Part shown: positions 44,720 through 44,950 of the stretch, piece after piece
Layout: every line of letters begins with the position of its first letter
Numbering within the stretch: position 1 is the first letter of the stretch
Source of the DNA: a virus
Taxonomy: Duplodnaviria; Heunggongvirae; Uroviricota; Caudoviricetes
Virus record (IMG/VR): IMGVR_UViG_2565956722_000005
Span: 1-46,116 of that record
DNA: 46,116 bases
Direction: 5' to 3' (one strand)
Program-made: the position numbers and the translations under genes
The notes under the pieces: generated by a model
The model's input: the letters and a program-made list of their open reading frames with translations, nothing else
Told to the model about the DNA's origin: nothing
Databases searched by the model: none

Positions 44720-44950
44720 ATGACAATCAATATTCAGCCGATTCTAATAAACCGCGAGCGTGTTCAGGAGATGCTTGGTGGTATCTCCAGAACTACTTTT
44801 TACCGGAAGCGTAAACAGTGGGAGCAATCAGGGACACCATTCCCTCGGGAAGTGGAAGAAATCCACCCACCGAAAGGCGGCGCCCTCTTTCGCTACAAGG
44901 AAGTTATTCAGTTTTGCAAAGATAAAGGATTGATTTCCGAACACTCTTGA
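44720..44950 (+). CDS. AlpA-family excisionase/transcriptional regulator (Xis-like)
   Basis: 76-aa HTH protein (ERVQEMLGGISRTTFYRKRK); GGAGAAA RBS; 3' end overlaps the integrase 3' end. Confidence 0.7.
   Translation: MTINIQPILINRERVQEMLGGISRTTFYRKRKQWEQSGTPFPREVEEIHPPKGGALFRYKEVIQFCKDKGLISEHS

Follow-up and report, generated by a model that had tools for sequence, protein, structure and literature searches.

Two genes at the right-hand end of a viral genome, one for an integrase and one for a small DNA-binding protein, are read towards each other and overlap at their 3' ends, and the question that this locus raises is whether the overlap serves to control the integrase or is simply the way in which a recombination cassette has been packed. 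The genome is IMG/VR record IMGVR_UViG_2565956722_000005, a Caudoviricetes sequence of 46,116 nucleotides (nt) that is referred to here, over its whole length, as the window. We think it probable that the integrase gene (int) and its small neighbour, which encodes a winged-helix helix-turn-helix (HTH) protein, make up the site-specific recombination cassette of a lambdoid prophage, in the inverted-int layout of phi24B- and phi80-type phages.

Both the list of open reading frames (ORFs) and the raw sequence give a converging pair. The HTH gene occupies positions 44720-44950 of the + strand (ATG to TGA, 76 amino acids, MTINIQPILINRERVQEMLGGISRTTFYRKRKQWEQSGTPFPREVEEIHPPKGGALFRYKEVIQFCKDKGLISEHS) and int positions 44908-46116 of the - strand (ATG to TGA, 402 amino acids). 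The window's right end is exactly the int ATG, and the int promoter and the att site that the 5' end of int faces thus fall outside it. A convergent overlap of 43 base pairs (bp) at 44908-44950 had been reported by a first-pass annotation made from the letters of the window, and we recover it exactly. No choice of start or stop codon abolishes it, both stops being fixed by the sequence and conserved in relatives. It takes in the final 14 sense codons of the HTH gene (IQFCKDKGLISEHS) and, on the other strand, the codons for Int residues 390-402 with part of codon 389. The same 43-bp overlap is found in the coding sequences that the Prokaryotic Genome Annotation Pipeline (PGAP) and RefSeq assign in E. 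coli chromosomes, where the HTH gene is labelled as a hypothetical protein; 73 of 5426 complete E. coli genomes carry the cassette at an identity of at least 99%.

The + strand of the window is the early-left direction. On it are read an S24/HTH cI-like repressor gene (39954-40709), kil, gam, bet (RecT family) and exo (YqaJ), as well as genes for DUF1317, DUF1382, a TraR-like zinc finger and DUF4222, and on the - strand lie a Cro-like gene, YdaT and the O and P genes. The earlier placement of the small gene on the PL strand, with int opposite, is thus borne out, and the early-left operon ends with the small gene.

The integrase can be identified with little difficulty. In Pfam it has Arm-DNA-bind_3 (DUF4102, PF13356, E 1.9e-20), Phage_int_M and Phage_integrase (PF00589, E 1.1e-17) domains, and it matches PHROG 1, an integrase family, with E 1e-65. 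The motifs TGCRGVELR, HDLRRT, LGH and AVYDQY are present in its translation and align with those of the Int protein of phi24B, to which it is 34% identical over residues 1-389 (BLASTP, E 2e-73). It is 75% identical to Int of Salmonella phage Oslo and about 32% identical to that of phage mEpX1, and 564 phage records contain a match to it by tblastn. Judged by sequence, Int belongs to the P4-type tyrosine integrases, with an N-terminal arm-binding domain and a C-terminal catalytic domain that carries the Arg/His/Arg/Tyr set. We note that an IS1A element has inserted into this integrase gene in E. coli TUM10008 (NZ_CP135658) and split it.

The identity of the small protein is harder to establish. 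In the records of phages Oslo and Pm34, as in E. coli genomes, it is called hypothetical, and in that of coliphage mEp021 it is labelled a putative helix-turn-helix protein. It belongs to a tiny family (19 proteins from an exhaustive HMMER search of 1.84 billion representatives) that is nevertheless conserved, with 19 invariant columns across 22 sequences, and it matches a PHROGs 'DNA binding protein' family with E 1.8e-6. An AlphaFold2 (AF2) model, with a mean predicted local confidence (pLDDT) of 78.7, has a strand-helix-helix-strand-helix fold (strands at residues 9-11 and 56-58, helices at 12-18, 24-37 and 59-69). The top Foldseek match to this model in the PDB is the GIsul2 excisionase 8c3t (probability 0.97, TM scores 0.53/0.67, E 0.08), followed by MerR-type winged-helix domains and the putative Klebsiella excisionase 2kvv. 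Comparison of the family profile by hhalign with a profile of phi24B Xis, its counterparts in phages PA2, 2851 and ENT39118 and AlpA gave a probability of 85.9% and E 5.3e-6 over 53 columns, both profiles being shallow (effective number of sequences about 2). In a joint alignment with phi24B Xis, its relatives and bona fide AlpA, the family has the same architecture and a shared F-P motif, and differs by insertions after the recognition helix and in the wing. Only the profile-profile comparison was informative: single-sequence hhalign runs against one AlpA and against phi24B Xis returned meaningless alignments, and a PDB sequence search with the family profile returned noise. These fold and profile comparisons support the view that the protein is a divergent winged-helix relative of phi24B Xis and AlpA. 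Because they go together with its position beside a homologous integrase, recombination directionality factor is the best assignment for it, and we infer that it has excisionase activity.

The arrangement of the two genes is conserved. We took relatives of the small protein (numbered here with the prefix L) from genomes, viral contigs and phage records and measured in each the distance between the two stop codons. A convergent overlap was found in every intact relative in which the small gene lies beside an integrase gene. Its length is 43 bp in E. coli and the closest Citrobacter and Escherichia relatives, 46 bp in Atlantibacter, 55 bp in Oslo-like Salmonella elements, 37 bp in L062-L065, 31 bp in Dryocola and Scandinavium, 61 bp in mEp021 and 25 bp in Proteus phage Pm34. 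The comparison with related P4-type integrase prophages that had been proposed as a check therefore shows the layout to be kept, with overlaps of 25-61 bp in one and the same phase: all seven lengths leave a remainder of 1 on division by 3, so that the third codon positions of the two genes coincide. A constant phase would be expected if both frames are maintained and insertions and deletions come in threes. The two proteins also diverge in parallel, Int being 44-48% identical where the small protein is 47-56% identical, as would be expected of a co-inherited cognate pair. In the phages that carry the family (Oslo, mEp021 and Pm34), too, the small gene is the last of the early-left, or recombination, operon. 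There are exceptions besides a distant branch that is considered below: the copy in L060 is frameshifted, and L067 has a truncated fusion copy followed by a different, co-directional xis-int pair. In the record of phage Oslo (L002), the 81-residue homologue at 3994-4239 is unannotated and a 37-residue ORF in another frame has been deposited instead.

As a unit of the phage mosaic, the cassette extends from 44673 to 46116. High-identity homology to other lambda-like phages, which extends through the left operon, ends at about 44672, some 48 nt 5' of the HTH start codon, and the matches to 195 phage records end at or before that position. From there to the int ATG a full-length match was found, among phage records, only in Salmonella phage vB_SosS_Oslo, at 71% DNA identity.

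The first-pass annotation had set this arrangement against that of lambda, in which xis and int are co-directional, a contrast that made it look unusual. That impression did not survive comparison with phages of the same integrase clade, for which convergence is the standard layout. In phi24B (HM208303) int is at 236-1405 and xis at 1389-1571, an overlap of 17 bp; in PA2 int is at 220-1389 and an HTH gene at 1373-1540, again an overlap of 17 bp; and in the phi80-type phage mEpX1 int is at 1141-2391 and an excisionase-like gene at 2388-2585, an overlap of 4 bp. In phage 2851 (int at 228-1406) and Cronobacter phage ENT39118 (int at 1201-2379), we found unannotated ORFs for AlpA-like proteins of 63 amino acids at 1387-1578 (L080) and 2360-2551 (L081), respectively, each of which overlaps int by 20 bp. 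In phi80, int is reportedly opposite in orientation to that of lambda, as Leong and colleagues are said to have described in 1986. The cassette of the window has the features of this layout as far as sequence comparison can define them: int runs against the early-left operon, its 5' end towards att, the small gene converges on it, and Int is homologous to that of phi24B. The convergent layout is thus not new in kind, being already known from phi24B and phi80-type phages.

A description of the phi24B module, with a partial characterisation, has been published (Fogg et al. 2011, PMC3064807). Its int gene is inverted relative to that of lambda, has its own promoter, mapped by 5' rapid amplification of cDNA ends, and is not repressed by overexpressed CI (PMC3064807). 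Int of phi24B cannot excise on its own; a small ORF beside the 3' end of int, oriented as is lambda xis and hence under pL, gives excisionase activity and is required for excision (PMC3064807).

How, then, did the overlap come about? The stop codon of the HTH gene is at 44948-44950 and codon 389 of int at 44950-44952, and the BLASTP alignment of Int with phi24B Int ends exactly at residue 389, the Pfam catalytic domain having ended at residue 371. The overlapped Int residues 390-402 (QECSEINPLSLQN) therefore lie past the conserved core, and the Int tail differs in length and sequence among relatives (...CVDSTSP in L009, ...VDEISPMS in L062, ...KPISSKNRITS in mEp021, ...SCTE in Pm34). On the other strand, the overlap encodes the end of the C-terminal helix of the HTH protein (QFCKDKGL), in which every family member has Q64, F65 and G70, and a tail that is modelled with low confidence. 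The ATT-CAG (Ile-Gln) codons of the HTH gene create the int stop codon, and where these codons differ in relatives, int stops earlier or reads further. We do not regard the length of 43 bp as informative, since once two convergent genes abut, a run-on of 13 stop-free codons has a chance of (61/64)^13, or about 0.54, in random sequence, where the mean run is about 21 codons. Because the overlapped part of Int lies beyond the conserved core, the overlap looks like a by-product of zero-spacing packing, most simply the run-on of a dispensable Int tail. The feature that is not random is the abutting convergent arrangement, which is kept in all int-linked relatives.

We read the region upstream of int, which the window does not include, in an E. 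coli chromosome (L001, NZ_CP026723) and nine relatives. About 200 nt upstream of the int ATG is a conserved box, TTTG(T/C)ATGTGATCTTnCGTGTAAGTA, to the left of which several lysogens switch to sequence that is conserved among different host genera; the box is for that reason the likely crossover region. Between it and a -10-like hexamer (TAAAAT, TAGAAT, TAAGAT or TAATAT) are two clusters of GTTTCA-type direct repeats with a spacing of about 11 bp. Directly after the hexamer come two or three tandem TGTGTAC(C/A)AA repeats with a spacing of 12 bp, which end 20-30 nt before the ATG and whose TGTGTAC core is invariant in 10 relatives, mEp021 and Pm34 included. In L001 the tandem TTGGTACACAA repeats are at 5485-5507, 28-50 nt from the ATG, with a second, degenerate pair 230 bp away, and in the free phage Oslo a second pair of TGTGTAC repeats lies on the far side of the box. 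The TGTGTAC repeats have the look of arm-type sites for Int. The phased GTTTCA repeats, which lie at the putative -35, are, by analogy with KplE1 and P4, candidate sites for repression of the int promoter by the directionality factor, and we infer the promoter itself from a single feature, the conserved -10-like hexamer. A search of the window for the conserved box, aimed at the other att end, found none; the other att site is not in the window, and no tRNA was found at the junction. We also note that the sequence past the crossover box in L001 (5458-5800) is not host-like and resembles the P arm of Oslo attP, with degenerate TGTGTAC repeats, before the type III secretion effector gene espL1 begins; Citrobacter, Atlantibacter and Scandinavium lysogens have conserved host sequence at the same position. 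These observations suggest that the neighbour of the E. coli prophage is what remains of a related element, possibly the espL1 island.

In the cassette as we understand it, int would be transcribed inwards, away from att, starting at a promoter of its own embedded in the phage arm of att. The 76-residue winged-helix protein would be the cognate directionality factor, encoded by the last gene of an early-left operon under CI control and read towards int. Directionality would then be set by control of expression, Int being available independently of the repressor and the directionality factor only after derepression. No spacer would separate the two genes: the small gene stops where the conserved Int core ends, and int, still open there, continues across the 3' end of the small gene for 13 codons that are not conserved before a stop closes it. 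The 43-bp overlap would be this extension.

Several observations weigh against this account. The case for the window's own cassette is built from comparisons of sequences and models and from published work on phi24B, KplE1 and P4. A search of Pfam with the HTH protein gave only generic HTH families below threshold and neither Phage_AlpA (PF05930) nor HTH_17 (PF12728), the nearest approach being a sub-threshold Phage_AlpA match of E 0.14 in one of the 22 family members; NCBIfam gave no match. The fold matches are weak, none in Foldseek reaching E 0.001 and the best standing at 0.08. Of the label 'AlpA-like excisionase', which the first-pass annotation had attached to the protein, the AlpA/HTH_17-type winged helix is therefore plausible from the GIsul2 match and the profile alignment, but not from Pfam. 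The paper describing the mEp021 genome makes no mention of an excisionase. Scanned against the promoter consensus, the sequence directly upstream of int gave no sigma-70 site. The Int tails of the window and of Oslo have the motif (S/N)PLSLQN in common, which could mean that the tail is functional; the motif could equally be a passenger of QFCKDKGL on the opposite strand. Lastly, the family is not strictly tied to int, since a distant branch (L008 and L068-L076, 51-65% identity) has no integrase gene within 4 kilobases. Members of this branch, in each of which the match is at about 3986-4210, lie in islands with a classical AlpA gene, in some cases an Abi_2 gene, and conserved proteins of 209 and 143 amino acids of no known function.

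The main alternative use for the overlap is the one that the first-pass annotation proposed, namely antisense control of the integrase by early-left transcription that would run on into int. Int synthesis could then fall because polymerases collide or because RNase III cuts an RNA duplex. Such control would add to the recombination-cassette reading and not replace it, and we consider it a reasonable idea but an unlikely one. It is true that overlapping ORFs leave no room for an intergenic terminator, and no consistent hairpin with a U-tract behind it came out of a scan of the window or of folds computed, in 11 relatives, for the 110 nt that follow each stop codon; since no convincing terminator separates the genes, their transcripts should overlap by more than 43 nt. 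Two hairpins were considered as terminators and set aside. One, in the int sense at 44880-44863 on the - strand, begins 28 nt past the int stop, inside the HTH gene, is formed by Pro-Pro-Lys-Gly-Gly codons and is a doubtful terminator: it appears to be coding-driven, recurring where PPKGG is conserved, lacks a proper U-tract and is absent in distant members. The other, on the + strand around the codons for the catalytic Tyr, is likewise coding-driven and is absent in L009 and L010. The arrangement is also kept over wide divergence, and interference between convergent lytic and lysogenic transcription is established in phage 186, going by the work that PMC7498355 cites. Conservation of the layout is, however, equally well explained by inheritance of a compact cassette. 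Moreover, excision needs Int at the time when PL fires, and strong silencing of int would then be counter-productive. The word antisense occurs in neither of the two phi24B papers (PMC3064807 and the att-site paper PMC7581858), and antisense effects are unmentioned in both. Nothing specific came from literature searches for modules of this kind in which int is under antisense or convergent control. Rho, or control at the protein level at an att-embedded int promoter with its conserved repeats, would offer other routes to the same end.

There are also reasons to doubt that early-left transcription reaches far into int. On the + strand past 44950 there is no long ORF, and the RNA would go untranslated and be richer in C than in G; an unmodified polymerase would therefore be exposed to Rho there and would be expected to stop early. 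We found no ORF of the size of N between cI and kil and no other antitermination device in the operon, and an Rfam scan of 39500-46116, judged by E-value, matched no known antisense or antiterminator RNA. The leader at 41025-41225 folds only modestly better than shuffled sequences (z -2.2), and showed no similarity to the HK022 stretch compared, which may not include putL. A consensus scan of 40700-41300 found no + strand promoter, and PL could not be placed with confidence. We note in this connection a TTG-initiated ORF of 31 amino acids in the leader (41101-41196, + strand), whose arginine-rich stretch GVKRTRERR is reminiscent of the RNA-binding motif of lambdoid N proteins; it could be an N remnant or a chance match. 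Further along, terminator-like hairpins stand on the + strand upstream of the small gene at 43412, at 44007 and, weakly, at 44676, the last (44676-44693) being followed by a T-run just 5' of the HTH ribosome-binding site. Some relatives have strong versions at this place: in L003, L005 and L010 a GC-rich hairpin followed by TTCTTTTT lies directly before GGAG, about 20-50 nt upstream of the small gene. This suggests that expression of the small gene in such relatives depends on terminator read-through, the window's version being weak.

A bolder form of the idea, which we think quite unlikely, is that the zero-spacing layout, conserved throughout the P4-type Int clade of enterobacterial temperate phages, acts as a reciprocal antisense toggle. 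In a lysogen, constitutive and unterminated int transcripts, antisense to the gene for the directionality factor, would silence its leaky expression and so prevent spurious excision, and after derepression strong early-left transcription would override them and damp further Int synthesis. If true, this would be a counterpart at the RNA level of the PI/sib circuit of lambda, obtained by inverting int.

It might be argued instead that the small protein is mainly a transcription factor, acting on the int promoter as a repressor through the GTTTCA repeats or, like AlpA, on other genes, and that the true excisionase is encoded elsewhere or is absent. Homologues at 51-65% identity in islands with no neighbouring integrase would fit such a role, as would the phased direct repeats at the putative -35 of the int promoter and the fact that Pfam sees nothing but generic HTH families. 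The directionality factors of KplE1 and P4 do repress int promoters (PMC2951348; PMC7498355), and the two roles are often combined. But the gene stands in the exact place of the validated xis gene of phi24B, beside a homologous integrase with which its product co-diverges, the closest solved fold is that of an excisionase, and the ORF list holds no other small HTH ORF adjoining int. We therefore hold this explanation to be improbable. Weaker still is the suggestion that the overlap is an artefact of ORF calling, one of the two ORFs being no gene or ending earlier, which we judge scarcely credible. Small ORFs beside integrase genes are often mis-called, as the 37-residue ORF deposited for Oslo in place of the 81-residue homologue shows, and the corresponding gene is unannotated in 2851 and ENT39118. 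Nevertheless, both stop codons are fixed by the sequence, conservation of both proteins extends right to the overlap, within which the small protein has invariant residues, and the phase is kept through seven overlap lengths; because of these conservation data we take the artefact explanation to be refuted already.

What the recombination-cassette reading offers is in the first place practical. It gives a likely function, that of directionality factor, to a tiny orphan HTH family (19 representative clusters among 1.8 billion proteins), and it draws attention to small excisionase-type genes that overlap the 3' end of int and were left unannotated in the deposited genomes of Oslo, 2851 and ENT39118, all with integrases of the same clade. 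There is nothing in it that would surprise a phage specialist; its practical value lies in the annotation of this family and of the unannotated xis genes. The layout would separate control of Int, which is independent of the repressor, from control of excision, which depends on it. For phi24B this separation has been linked to multiple lysogeny, and prophages with the cassette described here may share that behaviour. Antisense control, if it were true, would apply to the whole integrase clade.

Elsewhere in the window we note three further features. Downstream of the P replication gene, on the - strand, is a gene for a large serine recombinase of 508 amino acids (34882-36408; Resolvase, Recombinase and Zn_ribbon_recom domains), so that the prophage has two recombinases of different classes, and this second one may lie on an inserted element. 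Beside it is a gene for a small multidrug resistance (SMR) transporter (36663-37049, - strand). At the very start of the window (1-1743, + strand), beside tail-fibre genes, is a gene for a KAP-family P-loop NTPase of 580 amino acids, perhaps an accessory gene of the defence type, situated at the prophage's far end.

Comparison with known systems places the cassette closest to those of phi24B and PA2, which have a homologous P4-type int gene in the inverted orientation, att on its 5' side and a small HTH gene that is last in the pL operon, with the 3' ends overlapping. The overlap in phi24B is, however, 17 bp long and in another phase, compared with 43 bp here, and the att sequences and integration sites of the two prophages differ. 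The small proteins differ as well: phi24B Xis has 60 amino acids and passes the Pfam threshold for HTH_17, whereas the 76-residue protein of the window fails it and is related at the profile-profile level only, with an extended second helix and a longer wing loop. In mEpX1, too, att is upstream of int and the early-left operon ends where int and the excisionase gene converge, but the overlap is a minimal 4 bp and the excisionase is of another family, with no match to AlpA or HTH_17.

In KplE1 and HK620, the gene for the directionality factor lies across att from int and is not known to converge on it. KplE1 (CPS-53), with its IntS/TorI pair, and P4, with Int/Vis, nevertheless resemble the window's cassette in that int is read away from att and that conserved repeats, here putative arm-type sites, stand between the putative -10 and the start codon, a configuration from which autoregulation would be predicted, and control of excision would likewise rest on expression of the directionality factor. 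In both of these systems the int promoter is embedded in att and is repressed by Int and the directionality factor (PMC2951348; PMC7498355), and negative autoregulation, shown in KplE1 with arm sites between promoter and start codon, has been predicted to be widespread (Panis et al. 2010, PMC2951348).

The precedent for interference comes from further afield. The pL unit of phage 186 carries int, and lytic transcription converges on this lysogenic unit. There a short distance separates the facing promoters and it is promoter firing that is affected, whereas the units of the window converge 3' end to 3' end, more than 1.2 kilobases away from the int promoter. In 186, pR inhibits pL by transcriptional interference between convergent promoters (Callen et al. 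2004, as cited in PMC7498355).

Lambda, finally, has the same functional pair at the distal end of its early-left operon and faces the same need to uncouple the levels of Int and Xis between integration and excision. Its xis and int genes are co-directional and co-transcribed from PL and are uncoupled through the CII-activated PI promoter and the sib RNase III site (PMC2951348). What lambda achieves with PI and sib, the cassette described here would achieve through the orientation of its genes.

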